Of a stretch of DNA of 7,808 bases, positions 1 to 7,808 are shown in pieces. Both the position numbers and the translations under genes were made by a program. A model generated the notes under the pieces. It was given only the letters and a program-made list of their open reading frames with translations, searched no databases and was not told the origin of the DNA. This DNA is from a virus (lineage: Duplodnaviria > Heunggongvirae > Uroviricota > Caudoviricetes). Numbering within the stretch: the first letter of the stretch is position 1; each line of letters opens with the position of its first letter. The stretch lies in IMG/VR virus record IMGVR_UViG_2617270940_000002, positions 1 through 7,808 of that record, one strand, 5' to 3'.

Positions 1-436
1 CTCGCGCATACAACCGGGCAGCGATGTGATTGTCTGCGCTGAAATGGACGAACAGTGGGGCTACGTAGGTGCTAAATCACGTCAGCGCTGGCTGTTTTAC
101 GCGTATGACAGGCTCCGGAAGACGGTTGTGGCGCACGTCTTCGGTGAACGCACTCTGGCCACACTGGAGCGTCTTCTGAGCCTGCTGTCGGCCTTTGACG
201 TGGTGATATGGATGACGGATGGCTGGCCGCTGTATGAATCCCGCCTGAAGGGAAAGCTGCACGTAATCAGCAAGCGTTACACTCAGCGCATTGAGCGACA
301 TAATCTGAATCTGAGACAACATCTGGCAAGGCTGGGACGGAAGTCACTGTCGTTCTCAAAATCGGTGGAGCTGCATGACAAAGTCATCGGGCATTATCTG
401 AACATAAAACACTATCAGTAAGTTGGAGTCATTACC
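1..436 (+). mobile_element. IS1-family insertion sequence, partial copy (3' ~436 bp, cut by window edge) with terminal inverted repeat at inner end (~414-436)
   Basis: Frame 2-421 translates to the C-terminal part of IS1 InsB; the element ends ...CAGTAAGTTGGAGTCATTACC at 436, the reverse complement of the IS1 terminal IR GGTAATGACTCCAACTTACTG; an exact inverted duplicate lies at 7373-7808. Confidence 0.9.
2..421 (+). CDS. insB: IS1 transposase InsB, C-terminal portion (5' end outside window)
   Basis: Translation ...[30 protein letters not shown]...[15 protein letters not shown] matches IS1 InsB; the frame stays open to the window start; stop at 419-421. Confidence 0.85.
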
Positions 437-472
437 GGCGACACCCGTTGTTAACTTATCCATGGATTTCAT
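437..472 (-). pseudogene. essD: pinholin (S21/EssD-family) 5' fragment, first 12 codons only, truncated by IS1 insertion
   Basis: Minus-strand ATG at 472-470 preceded by SD GAGGTGGGG; translation MKSMDKLTTGVA carries the dual-start MKSM motif of the phage 21 S holin/EssD and runs directly into the IS1 end at 436; position matches essD next to nmpC in DLP12. Confidence 0.5.
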
Positions 473-600
473 AACCCCACCTCGCAGACAAAGCGGGTGT
501 AAATTGAGGGAATACAACGTATCGCAAAAAAGCAGAAACGTAACAGACTCGGAGTCAGTGAATAACTCAGGTATTGGGTTATCAGCTAATATCGAGACTC

Positions 601-633
601 AAAAAATGGAAAAACCCGCTCGACGGCGGGTTT
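601..633 (-). terminator. intrinsic terminator-like hairpin with U-tract (minus-strand orientation), ~130 bp upstream of the essD fragment
   Basis: Stem 612-619/626-633 (AAACCCGC/GCGGGTTT, 5 GC pairs) with loop TCGACG; on the minus strand it is followed by UUCCAUUUUUU (611-601); the plus-strand tail has only 3 T. Confidence 0.4.
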
Positions 634-639
634 AAGCTG

Positions 640-1059
640 TGTGACGAAGTAACCACTCTTAACAGCATAACCAATTTTTTACGTACGTAAACCACTAAAT
701 GATATTTGCGAGAATGCTACCGAGTATTGAAAACACCACTACAAATACATAAGCAAATCTCAACAAATAACCAACAAATAATTTCCAGCGTTATTTTTAG
801 CTGGTTTAAATTGAATCTTCAAATTATAGAGCACTTATAAATAACAGCCATTAATATAAATTGGCTAATAGATTTATTTTTATTCAGCCAAGAGCCATGA
901 ATAGGATTCGATAGAAAAAGTTCAGATAAAAATAGAGATCTACTTCACAAATCAAATGAGAAACCAAAACTTACATCTTGAAATAATCACATTGATTAGA
1001 TGAATATTTATCGCGCAGTGACATCATTTTTTAATAATAGTTCAAAAAAAGGGCTCACG
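640..1059. promoter_or_regulatory. AT-rich divergent regulatory region between porin start and the late-operon terminator; exact promoters unresolved
   Basis: ~420 bp, strongly AT-rich, no ORF of 60 aa or more; porin SD AAGGG at 1049-1053; tandem 11-bp repeat at 760-781; TATAAT hexamer on the minus strand at 828-823; no convincing -35/-10 pair found by eye. Confidence 0.3.
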
Positions 1060-2142
1060 ATGAAAAAATTAACAGTGGCAATTTCTGCTGTAGCTGCATC
1101 AGTACTGATGGCGATGTCTGCTCAGGCAGCTGAAATTTATAATAAAGACAGTAACAAGCTGGATCTGTACGGGAAAGTTAATGCTAAGCACTACTTCTCC
1201 TCTAATGATGCAGATGATGGTGATACTACTTATGCCCGTCTTGGCTTCAAAGGTGAAACCCAAATCAACGATCAACTGACTGGTTTCGGTCAGTGGGAAT
1301 ATGAATTCAAAGGCAACCGCGCTGAATCTCAAGGTTCCTCCAAAGATAAAACCCGTCTTGCCTTCGCTGGCCTGAAATTCGGTGACTACGGCTCCATCGA
1401 TTATGGCCGTAACTACGGTGTAGCATACGACATCGGTGCGTGGACTGACGTTCTGCCAGAATTCGGTGGCGATACCTGGACCCAAACAGATGTATTCATG
1501 ACTGGTCGCACCACAGGTGTTGCAACTTATCGTAACAACGACTTCTTTGGTCTGGTTGATGGCCTGAACTTTGCAGCTCAGTATCAGGGCAAAAATGACC
1601 GAAATGAAGTAACTGAAGCTAATGGCGATGGTTTCGGTTTCTCAACTACTTATGAGTATGAAGGATTCGGCGTGGGTGCAACCTATGCTAAATCTGATCG
1701 CACTAATAATCAGGTTATCTACGGTAACAACGGTCTGAATGCTTCTGGTCAAAATGCTGAAGTATGGGCAGCTGGTCTGAAATATGATGCGAACAACATC
1801 TATCTGGCCACCACCTATTCTGAAACCCAGAACATGACTGTTTTTGGTAATAACCATATTGCCAACAAAGCACAAAACTTCGAAGCTGTTGCACAATATC
1901 AGTTCGACTTCGGCCTGCGTCCATCCGTTGCTTACCTGCATTCTAAAGGAAAAGACTTGGGTGTTTGGGGTGATCAGGACCTGGTTGAATATGTTGATGT
2001 AGGTGCAACCTATTACTTCAACAAAAATATGTCCACTTTTGTTGACTACAAAATCAACCTGATTGATAAGAGCGATTTCACGAAAGCATCTGGCGTTGCT
2101 ACCGATGATATCGTTGCTGTAGGTATGGTTTACCAGTTCTAA
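1060..2142 (+). CDS. nmpC: phage-encoded outer-membrane porin, OmpC/OmpF superfamily (NmpC/Lc type), intact, 360 aa with signal peptide
   Basis: ATG 1060 with SD 6 nt upstream; signal peptide [23 protein letters not shown] then AEIYNKD...; C-terminal ...VAVGMVYQF ends in Phe as in beta-barrel porins; convergent with the Q gene as in DLP12. The ORF-track start at 1000 is an upstream in-frame extension. Confidence 0.9.
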
Positions 2143-2305
2143 TTTGATTACTAAAAGATATGTTGTGGGAGGCTTTGCCTCCCCAACATATAAGTGGCTC
2201 CCTCAAGCCACTTCCTTTAGAAGCACAACCTTGCTTCTAACTATACAAACCTTCTGTTATATATTACCCTTTATTTTTGGGGGCGTTTCAACGCCCCATT
2301 TTTAA
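2143..2305 (+). ncRNA. structured 3' region immediately downstream of the porin stop, candidate IpeX-like sRNA / 3'UTR
   Basis: Three strong consecutive hairpins (2158-2191, 15-bp stem with one bulge; 2192-2213, 8-bp stem; 2217-2240, 9-bp stem) then a terminator at 2280-2303; IpeX is described as lying immediately downstream of the nmpC stop codon and ~167 nt long, and this span is ~163 nt. Confidence 0.35.
2280..2303 (+). terminator. rho-independent terminator (plus strand) ending the porin/3'UTR transcript
   Basis: GC stem GGGGCG (2280-2285) / CGCCCC (2292-2297), loop TTTCAA, followed by A-TTTTT (2298-2303). Confidence 0.55.
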
Positions 2306-2330
2306 TAACTTTTAGTAAATAATTGGCGTA

Positions 2331-2714
2331 TTAATTAGAGTTATTAACAACGATATCCATCTCTAACCGGATATCTAATGCCATTAACATCCCTTCAATT
2401 ATGCCCTCAGCCTTCTGTAACCTTTTCCCGATATAACCATCAGAGCAGCAATGCTTACCTGCCAGTGACATGAATGTCATACCGACTACATAATAATCTA
2501 CTAATAAATCGTGCAAATCGCTGTTGTTCTTTTTCAGACGGGCCATGCACCCGCAAATGATCATCGCGTCATCGTCACAACATTGCGGGCGAGATTTTAC
2601 TTTTGAAGTAATTAATCCCTTAAAACCGGCGGCAATGGACGACCAGGTCACATCTTCATGATTATTAGCCGCCCACGCTCCCCAACGCTCAAGAACCATC
2701 TGAATATCACGCAT
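2331..2714 (-). CDS. quuD: late-gene antiterminator Q (DLP12 QuuD type), 127 aa
   Basis: Translation [26 protein letters not shown]...[16 protein letters not shown]... recognised as QuuD; ATG at 2714 with SD GGAG 8 nt upstream; the ORF-track start at 2729 is an in-frame TTG extension. Confidence 0.85.
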
Positions 2715-2799
2715 CAACTTACTCCACAAAAATCAGACCAGAACGCCAATTACAAGCAAAAATCAACGAAACAGTATTAGTTGATTGTTATCTCTGACT

Positions 2800-2940
2800 T
2801 CATACTCCTGCTCCTGTCAGGGTTTTGGCGTAATTCTTCAGTATTCGGTAATCGGTCAAAACAGAACCGGGGAAACGATATAAGCGCAGACGCCCCCAGC
2901 GGTGGCGAAGACGTTCTGCCATATAAAACTCAAACATCAT
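2800..2940 (-). CDS. ylcG: small protein YlcG-like (46 aa)
   Basis: Hand translation [46 protein letters not shown]; its ATG overlaps the rusA stop (ATGA at 2940-2937); size and position match ylcG between rusA and quuD in DLP12; below the ORF-track size cutoff. Confidence 0.6.
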
Positions 2941-3299
2941 TCATTCCCCATTTCGGTGATGGTCAGTTCCAGCCTCCCACCTTTGGTAACAGGCATCTTC
3001 ACAACGCGGTAATCAACGACCTGAGCATCATCCAGCCAGAAACCTGCTTTAGTGAGTGCGTCAAAAGCGGCTTTTTGCAGATTATCCAGGTCACGGCGAC
3101 GGCGATCCGGCATGTGGCACTCAATGCGGATTTTCACAGGCATAGCCAGGCCGATATCCAGCATTGCGTTTTTAATGATTCGGGCGACGTTATCGCGGTA
3201 TGCCTGCCCCTCTGCGCTGACGTGCGTGCGCCCGCGATTATGGCGGTAATAGCGATTATTGCTCGGAGGCCAGGGTAATGTGATGCTGTAGGTATTCAC
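2937..3299 (-). CDS. rusA: Holliday junction resolvase RusA (crossover junction endodeoxyribonuclease), 120 aa
   Basis: Translation [23 protein letters not shown]...[30 protein letters not shown]... recognised as RusA; GTG start overlapping the ybcO stop (GTGA). Confidence 0.9.
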
Positions 3300-3586
3300 G
3301 CCTTAATAACCCCCTCTTTCAGCCAGATAACCTGTGTTCTCGCCATACCTTCCAGCGCGCATTCTTTTGCATATGCAGCATCGACAAAATGTGTGCGGCG
3401 GTCGATTTCGTCGTGGCAGGCAGAACATGCAATGGTGGCAATCAGGTCTGGCGGTTTGGCACCGGTGCCGCACAATCCAGTCAGCCGGATATGTGCCAGT
3501 ACAGACGTTTCAGGGTTGCCATTACATACGCCAGGGATTCTTACCTGGCATTCCCGACTACGCGCTGCTTTTCTCAAATCAGCCAT
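3296..3586 (-). CDS. ybcO: YbcO-family putative nuclease (DUF1364), 96 aa
   Basis: Translation from ATG 3586: [37 protein letters not shown]...[11 protein letters not shown]..., Cys-rich; the ORF-track start at 3625 is an upstream extension; position between ninE and rusA as in DLP12. Confidence 0.8.
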
Positions 3587-3749
3587 GATTCCTCCTTGCT
3601 GCCAGTCGCAACCATTTTTTATCAACCAGGCTGGCGGTATATCCGAGCAGTGTTGGTATTTCGGAAGGCTTCAGCTCCGGTTTACGCTTACGACGATCTG
3701 GTACTCTGTAGATGTGTCCGTTCATGACACGAATAAGCGGTGTAGCCAT
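3579..3749 (-). CDS. ninE: NinE protein (56 aa)
   Basis: Hand translation [56 protein letters not shown]; its ATG overlaps the ybcN stop (TAATG) and its stop overlaps the ybcO start (ATGGCTGA); below the ORF-track cutoff. Confidence 0.75.
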   Translation of the reverse strand: MATPLIRVMNGHIYRVPDRRKRKPELKPSEIPTLLGYTASLVDKKWLRLAARRNHG

Positions 3750-4204
3750 TACGCCTCCTGCTTGTCGCGGAGCAGCTGGAACTCGCAGCTCTGCGGAATA
3801 GTCAGGTGGCAGCCAATATTCACCGCCCAGGCTTCAACCTTACACAGGAAGACATACATCTCTCCGGTATCAAGATCGGAGGTATGGCGTAACGACTGGA
3901 TAGTGGTGATATCACCGGTTACGACATCAACCAGGTCTTTGGTTTCATAACCGAGATATGTGTGTTTGAGAGCATCTTTTACCCAAGCTGGAGTAGCGAA
4001 CGTTTTACCCCTGCTGATGAGGTATTCACTGATTTCGCTGTACCACATGTGGCTGAGTGCATTCTGGGAAAGACTGCGTTTCTCACGCCACGGTTTAAGC
4101 ACCATGCGAAAGCATTTGCCCTCCTCCAGATAAGGCTGGATCTGCCGACCGATAGCGGTGAAGTTACCGCGATGTAATTTGATGCCATCTTGTGGGAGAT
4201 TCAC
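3749..4204 (-). CDS. ybcN: NinB/Orf-family recombination protein (YbcN-like), 151 aa
   Basis: Translation [15 protein letters not shown]...[21 protein letters not shown]... carries the NinB-like RSL-QN motif; GTG start at 4204 with SD GGAGGTG 5 nt upstream. Confidence 0.85.
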
Positions 4205-4302
4205 GCTTCACCTCCGCAGAGGTCAAACGCTGGATACAATATATCGCAGGTGCATTTCTGCATCTGTGGAGGGAGAAGAGAGTTTGGATTGTGTGTGCGC
4301 AT
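4201..4302 (-). CDS. ylcH: small Cys-containing protein, YlcH-like (33 aa)
   Basis: Hand translation [33 protein letters not shown]; SD GGGGA 6 nt upstream of ATG 4302; stop overlaps the ybcN GTG (GTGA); a 33-aa ORF directly upstream of ybcN matches ylcH in DLP12 by size and position only (sequence not recalled). Confidence 0.45.
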
Positions 4303-4391
4303 AAACGTCCCCGTTTAGCGCAGAAGTCACCGGAGTTGTTCAGGCTCCGATGACATGATTATGGCGAGTTGATTATCGCAAATCAAAGGTT

Positions 4392-4748
4392 TTAATTGTG
4401 CTTTATTCCTTCAAGCGTTGCCTTCATACCAACCAAAGAAATGTTTAGCTCTCCAACTTTCTCAGGGCTATATAATTCAGAATGAAGCCAATATTCTGAT
4501 TTATCTAAACATCTTTTAGCCAGCTCTCGATCAAAGTCTACGACTTGGGAAGACGCTTCATACCAAAGCCTATAAAGTTTTTCTTCTTCGTTTGGGTTAT
4601 TAGGCTCACCACGTTTTAATTTTTCAGTATATAAAATTGTTGAATAAATCGCAGGAGTTAATCCAGTGATTGCCCTCTGCCGCAGATCGGATTTGTTTGT
4701 TATCCACCCCAACAGACGATCTCCCATCCATGTGATAATTGTATCCAT
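4392..4748 (-). CDS. hypothetical protein, 118 aa, no family recognised
   Basis: ORF MDTIITWMGDRLLGWITNKSDL...EPNNPNEEEKLYRLWYEASSQVVDFDRELAKR...; ATG at 4748 with SD-like AAGAAGGG ~9 nt upstream; AT-rich like the recombinase; occupies the position taken by ybcM in E. coli K-12. Confidence 0.5.
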   Translation of the reverse strand: MDTIITWMGDRLLGWITNKSDLRQRAITGLTPAIYSTILYTEKLKRGEPNNPNEEEKLYRLWYEASSQVVDFDRELAKRCLDKSEYWLHSELYSPEKVGELNISLVGMKATLEGIKHN

Positions 4749-5209
4749 GCTTTAGCCCTTCTTAGTAAATAGTGTGTAGGGCGACTGAAGGACCGAGTTT
4801 ATGCTTTTTCGCATTGCTTTCAGTTAGTACACCGGTATCGCACCGGAAACAATCCTACGGCAAATTGGTTGTCTGACCTCTCGGTTTTTCGTGCATTAAC
4901 CGATACCCACTACAGTCTCGGCGAAAGCTGCACACCCCCAGGGTGTACTGGTAGCACTCGGCACAGCCTAGCACGCCACTTTCTTCTCACTATCCAGTCT
5001 AATTTTATCCCCTAGTCAGACACTCAGATGTAGTGCTCCGCAGCGGCATGCGGGGGAATACAAAAACTCGGACAAAATTGGGCCCTCCTTTTTGAATCAC
5101 TCGCGGGGATGTAGTTATTAATACATGGAAAAAGATCTGTTTTCAAATCCAACATTATATGGTTTCAATACCACGGGGTGGCTATGTGTTTCTCATTGTT
5201 AATTGGAAT

Positions 5210-5533
5210 CTACTGTAATCGATCCGAACGTAAATGCGGCAAAACTCGACTCCACTTATCATCCTGCCACGGCCGGAATTTTACATGTGCCGTTTCTCTG
5301 GCAAGGATTGCCTGTGCCTTATTGAGTATCTGGGGATATTCTTGCTCGATAGAAGTGAAGCGACCAGCTTCACGATGCTCCGCAACCTGAAGAAGAGGAG
5401 TAACGTTCTGGTAGGTAATTAACATCACATTCCCTGCTCGCCATAACCAGGCGAGTGTGCAAAGTTCGTTATCAGTGAATTGTTTTGTGATTGGGTATTG
5501 TTGAACTGCTAGAACGAGAACGCCAGCATCCAT
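5210..5533 (-). CDS. hypothetical protein, 107 aa, no family recognised
   Basis: ORF MDAGVLVLAVQQYPITKQFTDNELCTLAWLWRAGNVMLITYQ...; weak SD (GAGA); longest ORF in the region, overlapped by two shorter plus-strand ORFs; starts 111 bp downstream of the recombinase stop. Confidence 0.4.
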   Translation of the reverse strand: MDAGVLVLAVQQYPITKQFTDNELCTLAWLWRAGNVMLITYQNVTPLLQVAEHREAGRFTSIEQEYPQILNKAQAILARETAHVKFRPWQDDKWSRVLPHLRSDRLQ

Positions 5534-5644
5534 TGGCAGTCTCTATAGTAAAACCATAGCTCAGGACGCTTCGTTCAGGATAGATAATTTTATTGTACTT
5601 ACCTAACTTTCTTACTATAGCACGGTTGAAAAAGTGATTATTAC

Positions 5645-7171
5645 TCAAAAATAAACCTCACCATCAACCATATATTTGAGAGTACTTATCGCCTGCTGGG
5701 CGGATATTGTTTTCATTAAAGGATAGTGTTTAAAAACAATGCCATTCATAAAATAGATATCACAGGTTTTATTATCTGTATTGATTATGATTTTTTCGAA
5801 TGTTTTATAGGCAAGTGTACGACATAGCTCTCGCCCATTTTTACTGGTTAAGTCAATAGCATGAAAATCACCAAGTGAACTCACCGCTTTACTCTTCAAA
5901 GTTTTTAATGATACAGAAGCCCTTCGTAATTCCTTATCTAATACTCTGATTTTTTCTGCTATAGCGGTAACTTCAGGCGCAACAGATAATGCAGCAATTA
6001 AATTATTAATTTTCATCTGGAGCTCAATAATTTTCAACTCTAAAGTTTCATTAGCATCTTTCTTGTTTTCAACTGGTTGGATTTTACTACAATTAAAAAG
6101 CAACTCATTAATGATATTATAATCAACCAAATCTCTCTTTATTGATGGCCTGTCACATCGATGGAGTCTTCTCATCGGACAAACATAATAGCCATGCAAA
6201 CTTCCAGATACCGCATGAACAATCATGGTATTACCACAAGCCTCGCACTTCATAACTGTTCGAAGTAGATTTACCAACATAGGATTTTTGCTACTATTGC
6301 TAATACCAAAAGGTGCCAACCGAATTTCCTGTACAGCGTAAAACAAATCATCTGATATGACTCTGGGATAATAGCCAGCGATTTCACTTATTCCTTTACC
6401 TCTTGCACGATATGAAGGTACGCATATACCTATCAGAGCTTTATTCGCTAATAATTTTTCAATTACAGAAGGTCCCCATGCACTTTCTTTTCCTGAGAAA
6501 TTCTTTACAGCATGATCATTTAAATACTTGGCTATTGCATTCAATGAGCGCCTTTCCATCCTGAGTTTAAAAATTAGCTCAATAGTTTTCACCCTGTCGG
6601 GGTCTGGAACAAAAGCCGTTCTTTTGTCATCTAAGGAGAGACATCTCGGACAAGACGCCGTCATAATCGTACCTGATTCCAGTGCATCCTGCCGTTTTTT
6701 CTTCCATGATAATTTAACCCGACTTGACTTTATCTCGCTTTCTTCATTTGCCCTTTGTGCTATAAGTATGGCTTTTATTAATGAATATGGCTCATTCAAA
6801 GAGTCAATATTATAGACTGTATTGTCGCAAAGAGTTATAACATCAATACCGTGATTCAAAATCAATTTCAGACGTTCAATCGCTTCACCGACTTTTTCTC
6901 TTGAAAGTCTGTCCAGACTTTCAACTAACAATGTAGTTCCTGGCAATATATAACCATGCTCTATAGCATCTAAAAATTCCGAAAAAGCTCCTGATTGTGC
7001 ATGCTTTCCTTTGAATGCACTTAATCCTAAATCTTCATATGTTATGGTATCAAGATAATAATCACTATTTACCTTTAACCATTCAGCAATAAGTCTTCTC
7101 TGTCGGTTTAATGAGTCGCCAGACATCTGACCTGGTGATGAAAATCGCATATATGCTATGGCTTTTTTCAT
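5645..7171 (-). CDS. large serine recombinase (resolvase-type catalytic domain + recombinase domain + Zn-ribbon + coiled coil), 508 aa
   Basis: N-terminus AIAYMRFSSPGQ...RQRR fits the serine-recombinase active-site pattern (Y-x-R-x-S-S-x-x-Q); Cys pairs CPRC and CEAC...CPMRRLHRC; C-terminal heptad-rich region (ELKIIELQMKINNLIAAL); SD AGGTG before ATG 7171; strongly AT-rich. Same length and relative position as ybcK in DLP12, but the sequence was not verified. Confidence 0.85.
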   Translation of the reverse strand: MKKAIAYMRFSSPGQMSGDSLNRQRRLIAEWLKVNSDYYLDTITYEDLGLSAFKGKHAQSGAFSEFLDAIEHGYILPGTTLLVESLDRLSREKVGEAIERLKLILNHGIDVITLCDNTVYNIDSLNEPYSLIKAILIAQRANEESEIKSSRVKLSWKKKRQDALESGTIMTASCPRCLSLDDKRTAFVPDPDRVKTIELIFKLRMERRSLNAIAKYLNDHAVKNFSGKESAWGPSVIEKLLANKALIGICVPSYRARGKGISEIAGYYPRVISDDLFYAVQEIRLAPFGISNSSKNPMLVNLLRTVMKCEACGNTMIVHAVSGSLHGYYVCPMRRLHRCDRPSIKRDLVDYNIINELLFNCSKIQPVENKKDANETLELKIIELQMKINNLIAALSVAPEVTAIAEKIRVLDKELRRASVSLKTLKSKAVSSLGDFHAIDLTSKNGRELCRTLAYKTFEKIIINTDNKTCDIYFMNGIVFKHYPLMKTISAQQAISTLKYMVDGEVYF

Positions 7172-7372
7172 GGTGACACCTGCTAACGTATGCTTTTATA
7201 AACCTTAGTGGTGGGATATAATTTTTGTTTAATTTTTATTTAAAAAGACAATTAAGGTCACATTATCTTGAATATACAACAATAATCGTATTGCAATTTT
7301 CTTACGCCATAATCTTGAAAGCACAAAAGAATACATAAAAAAAATAAAGACATTAACAAAAAGCATAAAACG

Positions 7373-7808
7373 GGTAATGACTCCAACTTACTGATAGTGT
7401 TTTATGTTCAGATAATGCCCGATGACTTTGTCATGCAGCTCCACCGATTTTGAGAACGACAGTGACTTCCGTCCCAGCCTTGCCAGATGTTGTCTCAGAT
7501 TCAGATTATGTCGCTCAATGCGCTGAGTGTAACGCTTGCTGATTACGTGCAGCTTTCCCTTCAGGCGGGATTCATACAGCGGCCAGCCATCCGTCATCCA
7601 TATCACCACGTCAAAGGCCGACAGCAGGCTCAGAAGACGCTCCAGTGTGGCCAGAGTGCGTTCACCGAAGACGTGCGCCACAACCGTCTTCCGGAGCCTG
7701 TCATACGCGTAAAACAGCCAGCGCTGACGTGATTTAGCACCTACGTAGCCCCACTGTTCGTCCATTTCAGCGCAGACAATCACATCGCTGCCCGGTTGTA
7801 TGCGCGAG
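7373..7808 (-). mobile_element. IS1-family insertion sequence, partial copy, exact inverted duplicate of 1-436, terminal IR at inner end (7373-7395)
   Basis: Begins GGTAATGACTCCAACTTACTGATAGTG at 7373; 7373-7808 is the reverse complement of 1-436 (spot-checked at both ends; InsB translations identical). Confidence 0.9.
7388..7807 (-). CDS. insB: IS1 transposase InsB, C-terminal portion (5' end outside window)
   Basis: Translation identical to the left-copy InsB fragment; frame open to the window end. Confidence 0.85.

Follow-up and report, generated by a model that had tools for sequence, protein, structure and literature searches.

It is rare for a new class of structured RNA to exceed 300 nt, and many such classes already known have proved to be ribozymes, ribonucleoprotein scaffolds or sensors. 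ROOL and GOLLD are large structured non-coding RNAs (ncRNAs) tied to phages and prophages (Rfam; bioRxiv 10.1101/2024.12.08.627333). In the RCd22/AbiF pair of a C. difficile prophage, an ncRNA, a terminator and an open reading frame (ORF) follow one another in that order (bioRxiv 10.1101/2025.04.15.648962). The put element of phage HK022 is a cis-acting antitermination RNA of a lambdoid phage (PMC9378689), and STnc6030 of BTP1 is a prophage antisense RNA that is expressed in lysogens and has a defined complementary target (bioRxiv 10.1101/787010). Here we describe a candidate structured RNA found in a 7,808-nt stretch of DNA from a virus of the Caudoviricetes (IMG/VR record IMGVR_UViG_2617270940_000002, positions 1 to 7,808), the whole of which we call the window. 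The RNA lies in a variable slot of a DLP12-like lambdoid prophage, between the recombinase gene ybcK and the small gene ylcH, and it has a 107-aa ORF upstream and a 118-aa ORF downstream. A first-pass annotation of the window had placed its weight on the two ORFs and passed over the gap between them as filler. Our results reverse this emphasis, as the gap holds a conserved structured element.

The gap is 461 bp long (4749-5209) and free of ORFs. The GC content of its core was 50.8%, compared with 36-38% in ybcK and the 118-aa ORF, so that the first-pass description of the gap as GC-rich is right relative to the neighbouring genes and wrong in absolute terms. For about 355 nt of the gap, identity was 78% to Klebsiella phage Kp4856-1 and 83% to E. 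coli strain 3426, and in both of these the genes on either side of the RNA differed from those in the window. Further variants were gathered by motif scans of viral and metagenomic contigs and by walking out from homologues of the neighbouring proteins. The family collected in this way contained 36 distinct variants with 71-99% identity, all of them in early-right regions of lambdoid prophages. Identity was 71-83% across Kp4856-1, E. coli 3426, Enterobacter, Obesumbacterium and metagenomic prophages, and the named hosts were Escherichia, Klebsiella, Enterobacter and Obesumbacterium. No match came from motif scans of species-representative genomes or from plasmids. The RNA was present in 159 complete E. 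coli genomes (~3%), always as a single copy, and the RefSeq annotation was blank at the RNA in all 159.

To describe the fold, we derived a consensus structure with RNAalifold from an alignment of 26 sequences (alignment A3). The consensus contained 103 base pairs, and standard pairs were formed in 95.8% of the cells, compared with 34-44% when the 3' partners were slid by 1-3 columns. Compensatory changes, with both sides of a pair altered, were seen in 27 pairs against 6-10 in the slid controls. On four of five measures, the covariation score included, the observed value lay beyond all of 500 shuffles. At least seven different versions of one hairpin (alignment columns 226-250) were seen, all of them still complementary. 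In a strand test based on 299 G-U cells, pairing was 95.8% on the minus (gene) strand and 85.2% on the plus strand; the RNA thus has the orientation of the genes. Taken as comparative evidence, these results indicate that the core of the gap folds as RNA and that its helices are kept by compensatory changes.

The 5' domain of the RNA (5111-5006) holds a 48-nt stretch that showed no change among the three lineages that were compared first and almost none in the family as a whole. A long-range helix (4999-4994 with 4788-4783) closes the 3' domain. The junction nucleotides were highly conserved. We also noted one small ORF in the 5' domain, in which a strong Shine-Dalgarno sequence, AAGGAGG, precedes TTG and 19 codons (LSEFLYSPACRCGALHLSV; window 5075-5016, minus strand). 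It was rejected as a coding sequence, with a 1-nt deletion that frameshifts it in loci L081 and L101 and a Shine-Dalgarno sequence that is lost or altered in L081. The 19-codon ORF is probably non-coding, and a dual-function RNA that makes use of it is still conceivable.

A putative sigma-70 promoter precedes the RNA (Table 1), with a predicted transcription start at about 5110. Of 26 distinct upstream variants, 25 showed TTGnnn, a 17-nt spacer (18 nt in one case) and T(A/T)(A/T)AAT, and this motif stood 6-7 nt ahead of the first paired nucleotide (AUCCCC). The spacer sequences were unrelated among the upstream variants, while the hexamers and their spacing were kept. Such a phylogenetic footprint suggests a sigma-70 promoter belonging to the RNA. 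An inverted repeat, AACCATA-N5-TATGGTT or a near variant of it, overlaps the putative -35 element in sister lineages (L065 at ~640-700, and likewise L063, L069, L071 and L056), where it may serve as an operator or form a hairpin; the lineage of the window has not kept it.

At the other end of the RNA, most lineages carried a CCGCC-N4-GGCGG hairpin and a T-run within ~10 nt of the closing helix. In the sister lineages 8-10 nt lie between the 3' strand of the closing helix and the start of this terminator, and intrinsic terminators were formally called by the scan in L071 and L063. It is absent in the lineage of the window and in three related lineages that carry the 118-aa gene, and in these terminator-less lineages the RNA runs directly into the 118-aa ORF. 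In the window, the start of the ORF lies 31-48 nt past the RNA end with no terminator between the two.

The genes downstream of the RNA differed by lineage and encoded the 118-aa protein, a 178-aa protein with two transmembrane (TM) segments, a 183-aa protein with an RHNLLH motif, a 177-aa protein, a 93-aa protein or DUF1367. At least five unrelated genes are found in the downstream position, and the upstream genes also differ between lineages. A profile comparison with hhalign showed no homology among the downstream cargo proteins, and PADLOC gave no match for any of them. In L056 the RNA and its terminator are followed by an ordinary nin gene (DUF1367) with no cargo. In Klebsiella phage Kp4856-1 (L004, 5416-5967), the 183-aa protein after the RNA has an RLRHNLLH segment that fits the HEPN Rx4H pattern; this protein (PHROG 27260) had no Pfam or PADLOC match.

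The 118-aa gene was present in 158 E. coli genomes, and in ~59 of these it was cut to its first ~66 codons (PHROG 8527; for example NZ_CP120568.1 and NZ_CP023346.1, and loci L008 and L012). The RNA in those ~59 genomes was still 95-99% identical. Both the 118-aa protein and the TM protein have remote homologues in places where the RNA is absent. Because the RNA is kept beside truncated 118-aa genes and homologues of its neighbours occur without it, the RNA appears from these comparisons to be the conserved unit and its neighbours to be interchangeable. On the same kind of evidence, the island is more widely conserved than either of the two ORFs in the slot.

We then characterized the two ORFs. 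The AlphaFold2 model of the 118-aa protein was a four-helix bundle with a predicted local distance difference test score of 94.8. The protein had no match in Pfam, NCBIfam, PADLOC or PDB sequences, and structure searches with the model returned generic bundle matches only. A HEPN identity was considered and rejected, since the protein has no conserved Rx4-6H or R...H pair and HEPN structures appeared only at a Foldseek E-value of ~1. Close relatives were few and all from Enterobacterales. An exhaustive profile search extended the family to 351 cluster representatives, mostly 118-135 aa long, with T37, Y40, W62, K83 and W87 as invariant residues. The stand-alone remote members that we looked up were located at prophage ends, adjoining integrases. 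In the remote homologues P0054, P0080 and P0045, the four-helix-bundle domain forms the N-terminal part of a longer protein. The C-terminal half of P0054 matches the PADLOC defence candidate PDC-S60 (E=8e-13) and P0080 is a TM-rich protein. These longer fusion homologues hint at an adaptor or effector-associated role of the bundle domain.

The 107-aa ORF matched the P22AR_C domain (PF10548) with E=1.1e-15 and 57.9 bits, against a cut-off of 22.4. Phage PhiR5_1 encodes a 249-aa Rha protein at the equivalent position, between ren and ninB, and the ORF aligned to residues 152-249 of this protein with 82% identity. The P22AR_C domain places the ORF with the Rha / P22 antirepressor family, but full-length members of this family have ~250 aa, and the N-terminal two-thirds that the ORF lacks, with the Rha/ANT-type domain, were found in no frame here. 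To judge by these matches, the 107-aa ORF is the C-terminal third of a Rha antirepressor, a dead gene truncated at its 5' end. The fragment is left over from the joining of the emrE-ybcK module to this region.

The window as a whole is the nin/Q region of a DLP12-like lambdoid prophage, with its genes read on the minus strand. From right to left the order is ybcK, the slot, ylcH, ybcN (ninB-like), ninE, ybcO, rusA, ylcG and quuD, and beyond quuD there is an intact nmpC-type porin gene on the plus strand. Much of what the first-pass annotation said about this layout was confirmed. The flanks are collinear with DLP12 of E. coli K-12, with blastn identities of 97.6% (2101-4387) and 96.5% (5606-7372), and the content of the slot is as it listed (the 107-aa ORF, the ORF-free gap and the 118-aa ORF). 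Its view of the slot as variable also stands. Behind the same ybcK, K-12 carries ybcL-ybcM, Lambda_4C10-type phages carry a reverse-strand alpha/beta hydrolase as a third content, and the window carries other content. The hydrolase locus was seen at L132 2808-3851 (Escherichia virus Lambda_4C10 and six similar phages), with the hydrolase directly after the ybcK homologue. L132 also has ~240 bp of unannotated sequence that is 80% identical to window 5362-5602.

Other parts of that description needed correction. The slot had been bounded at 4303-5644; a replacement is indeed present, but the alignment against K-12 showed it to be somewhat narrower (4388-5605). The replaced block between ybcK and ylcH is 1218 bp here against 1813 bp in K-12, where it encodes ybcL and ybcM, and so is not quite of the same size, as had been claimed. 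The content had been called unrecognised, which holds for the 118-aa ORF; the 107-aa ORF has a recognised P22AR_C domain and an ordinary identity as a truncated rha gene, which is half of the outcome (both ORFs in well-characterised families of mundane function) that the first-pass annotation had named as refuting it. The statement that the slot encodes no PEBP or AraC protein was borne out, with no Pfam match to either domain in any slot ORF. Frameshifted remnants of ybcL or ybcM, which the first-pass annotation had allowed for, were not detectable by tblastn or sensitive blastn (best tblastn E-value 0.63, outside the slot). Nothing supported its suggestion that the slot carries defence or lysogenic-conversion cargo, and PADLOC gave no match for any slot protein.

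The exact slot sequence was present in 95 of 5426 complete E. coli genomes, and it was 99.8% identical in the isolated lambda-like phage Turner. The slot is therefore part of a viable phage and not only of a decaying prophage. We read the slot as a mosaic, assembled by recombination, within the nin region of a DLP12/lambda-like prophage. Its flanks, gene order and orientation are like those of the K-12 slot (ybcK-ybcL-ybcM-ylcH) at 96-98% identity, whereas the whole 1.8-kb ybcL-ybcM block there is replaced by 1.2 kb of unrelated sequence in the window. The coordinates of the features are collected in Table 1.

Table 1. Features of the slot and its flanks, in window coordinates.
Feature	Position	Strand	Basis and remarks
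ylcH, 33 aa	4201..4302	-	Left conserved flank; translation matches K-12 YlcH; K-12-like sequence to 4387
Replaced block	4388..5605	-	Breakpoints from window vs K-12 blastn; no homology to the K-12 ybcL-ybcM segment
118-aa ORF, four-helix bundle, PHROG 12412	4392..4748	-	ORF list; AlphaFold2 model
Putative ribosome-binding site of the 118-aa ORF, AAGAAGGG	4756..4763	-	Read from the sequence
Candidate structured RNA core, ~329 nt	4783..5111	-	Alignments A2 and A3; RNAalifold; pair counts; strand test; no Rfam match
Putative sigma-70 promoter of the RNA	5118..5146	-	-35 TTGAAA 5146-5141; 17-nt spacer; -10 TATTAA 5123-5118
107-aa ORF, N-terminally truncated rha (antirepressor), P22AR_C only	5210..5533	-	Pfam PF10548; phage PhiR5_1 Rha
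Right conserved flank	5606..7171	-	39 bp K-12-like, then ybcK 5645-7171

Several further features of the window were observed. The product of ybcK is a 508-aa large serine recombinase with Resolvase, Recombinase and Zn_ribbon_recom domains (Pfam). Two partial copies of IS1 (insB) lie in inverted orientation at 26-421 (plus strand) and 7388-7783 (minus strand) and enclose all 6.9 kb from nmpC to ybcK in the manner of a composite transposon. Judged against strain E7476, the IS1 junctions are at ~436 (left, in essD) and ~7373 (right, in ylcJ), and the right junction was reproduced in no complete E. coli genome, so that the DNA may come from a strain rich in IS1 or from a Shigella. The nmpC/ompC-type prophage porin gene (1000-2142, plus strand) is intact, unlike the K-12 copy of nmpC, which is split by IS5; it forms a 380-aa ORF whose true start is likely the internal MKKLTV. 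Two 13-nt segments (TGATTATGGCGAG / CTCGCCATAACCA) form an inverted repeat with 92% complementarity, one arm lying at 4356-4368 in the K-12-like flank and the other at 5437-5449 within the rha fragment. The two arms roughly bracket the RNA and the 118-aa gene, and this may be chance.

Several results weigh against reading the gap as an RNA gene in its own right, and we consider them together. The folding energy of the single sequence was no better than that of shuffled sequences (z = -0.1), and the same was true of the opposite strand. The sequence diversity amounts to only ~10 independent lineages, and the structure was tested on the same alignment from which it was derived. Naive all-against-all covariation was noisy, with 458 column pairs passing, and is unusable for pseudoknots. 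Because single-column covariation is noisy and the lineages are few, the case rests on evidence at the level of helices. The promoter and the transcript ends are predictions, and the promoter goes uncalled in a strict sigma-70 consensus scan, since the A at position 2 is missing from its -10 element. Finally, in E. coli the RNA is matched nearly 1:1 by the 118-aa gene or its remnant (159 and 158 genomes), which is equally compatible with a functional coupling of the two.

With these points taken into account, the reading that we prefer, by a little better than even chance, is that the RNA is a stand-alone accessory RNA gene of prophages which acts through its fold and which, in this lineage, also serves as the leader of the 118-aa ORF. 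The slot would then hold a dead, 5'-truncated rha, a self-contained RNA gene of ~330 nt and a small accessory gene for the 118-aa bundle protein. Transcription of the RNA would start at a sigma-70-type promoter of its own and run rightward, as it does for the nin genes, and the RNA would fold into two domains. In most sister lineages it would end at the intrinsic terminator and so form a discrete accessory 'moron' RNA. The long, invariant junctions and loops and the lack of an antisense target in the phage suggest that the folded RNA would work by binding of a protein or ligand and not by base-pairing. In the lineage of the window the terminator appears to have been replaced, so that the RNA would be fused to the 118-aa ORF as a long structured 5' leader. 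The 118-aa ORF has no promoter signal of its own and so would be expressed from the RNA promoter or by read-through of the early-right transcript.

The alternative that survives best is a purely cis-acting leader of the riboswitch or attenuator type, which would sense a ligand or the state of the cell and gate terminator read-through, or in the window translation, into whichever cargo gene follows. We regard this as possible but rather unlikely. It draws on the order of elements in the sister lineages (promoter, RNA, terminator, ribosome-binding site, ORF), where only ~20-50 nt separate the terminator from the start codon and leave no room for a promoter. The position of the terminator, 8-10 nt past the closing helix, is the typical layout of a riboswitch expression platform, and the conserved junction nucleotides and the position of the RNA right next to the 118-aa ORF in the window also agree with it. 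Riboswitches, however, usually control one functional class of genes, and the RNA precedes at least five unrelated proteins, and none in L056, which do not make up a coherent regulated class. The RNA also persists beside truncated ORFs, the candidate terminator/antiterminator pairing is mismatched in L004 and L101, and the early-right transcript of the phage can express the downstream genes in any case.

A broader version of a leader, to which we give a low probability, is that the RNA is a portable, RNA-only sensor or gate that senses a ligand or an infection signal and then releases whichever effector has been recombined in behind it. If this were true, the locus would be a plug-and-play cargo cassette in which an RNA, not a protein, is the conserved component. 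The effectors would be the four-helix bundle here and the two-TM, Rx4H-motif or other small proteins in the sister lineages.

We consider it improbable that the RNA is the antitoxin or sensor of a toxic downstream effector, in a module of the type III-like toxin-antitoxin or abortive-infection kind. The order of ncRNA, terminator and small ORF is the one seen in type III loci and in RCd22/abiF, and the downstream ORFs include the two-TM protein and the Rx4H (RHNLLH) protein. The 118-aa domain has remote relatives that are fused to a PDC-S60-like region and that lie near integrases and a TIR/NUDIX island. On the other hand, the RNA has no tandem repeats and no match to the abiF motif, and no partner protein had a ToxN, Abi_2 or PADLOC match. 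A single conserved RNA would need to neutralise five unrelated proteins, and the RNA occurs without a partner (L056) just as partners occur without the RNA.

The view of the first-pass annotation, in which the two ORFs are the cargo and the island is a spacer, promoter DNA or decayed coding sequence, now seems very unlikely to us. Both ORFs are intact, PHROG has profiles of exactly their lengths (phrog_7640 and phrog_12412), and RefSeq annotates both as genes. One of them is nevertheless a fragment of rha, and it is only the 118-aa ORF that remains without a family. The island is more widely conserved than either ORF, its pairing is kept by compensatory changes, and its sole candidate small ORF is frameshifted in two loci. 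It is similarly improbable that the element acts as DNA (a recombination linker, module boundary or protein-binding site), for although it sits exactly at mosaic junctions, with the cargo changing right after it and the upstream genes right before its promoter, its G-U-dependent pairing is strand-specific and compensatory changes in hairpins and long-range helices are unexpected for a site in duplex DNA.

The element is of interest for several reasons. It sits in lambda-like phages, the best-studied temperate phages, and yet it is unannotated in every complete E. coli genome that carries it. The isolated phage Turner carries the RNA and can be engineered, which would make testing easy. The RNA marks the recombination junction of swapped accessory genes and could explain their expression or control. 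There is also a lesson for annotation, in that the 'hypothetical proteins' of the slot are the less conserved part of the module.

We compared the RNA with known RNAs and systems. With Rfam 15 (4227 covariance models) the whole window had no match at E<=1 and a 421-nt slice none at E<=10, and ARAGORN found no tRNA or tmRNA. No tandem repeats were found in the RNA (TRF, score >=30), and a search for dispersed repeats returned just two, a direct pair of 18 nt and the inverted pair of 13 nt described above. A search for an antisense target elsewhere in the phage Turner genome gave only chance matches of <=14 nt. No description of the RNA was found in the literature by sequence strings or by topic. 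The RNA does not have the defining features of any of the known RNAs with which we compared it.

The individual comparisons showed partial likenesses. STnc6030 is likewise an accessory RNA of a temperate phage located outside the immunity region, but it is an antisense RNA with a target, whereas the RNA of the window has a conserved fold and no complementary target in the phage. HK022 put is likewise a structured nascent RNA of a lambdoid early operon that lies upstream of terminators. It is ~65-70 nt long and lies just downstream of pL and pR, while the RNA described here is ~5 times longer, lies in the nin region and apparently has its own promoter. Type III toxin-antitoxin systems and RCd22/AbiF share the architecture of promoter, ncRNA, terminator and small ORF in a prophage. 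The type III antitoxins (ToxIN, CptIN, TenpIN) consist of tandem direct repeats, which the RNA of the window does not have; it also lacks the abiF motif (Rfam), and its partners lack ToxN, AbiEii and Abi_2 (Pfam, PADLOC). Its partners are, moreover, interchangeable and dispensable, unlike those of either system. ROOL and GOLLD are likewise long, ornate and phage-borne, were found by comparative analysis and have no known partner protein. Compared with them, the RNA of the window is smaller (~330 nt) and matches no covariance model, and it occurs only in lambdoid prophages of Enterobacterales, where it is fixed at the head of the nin region.

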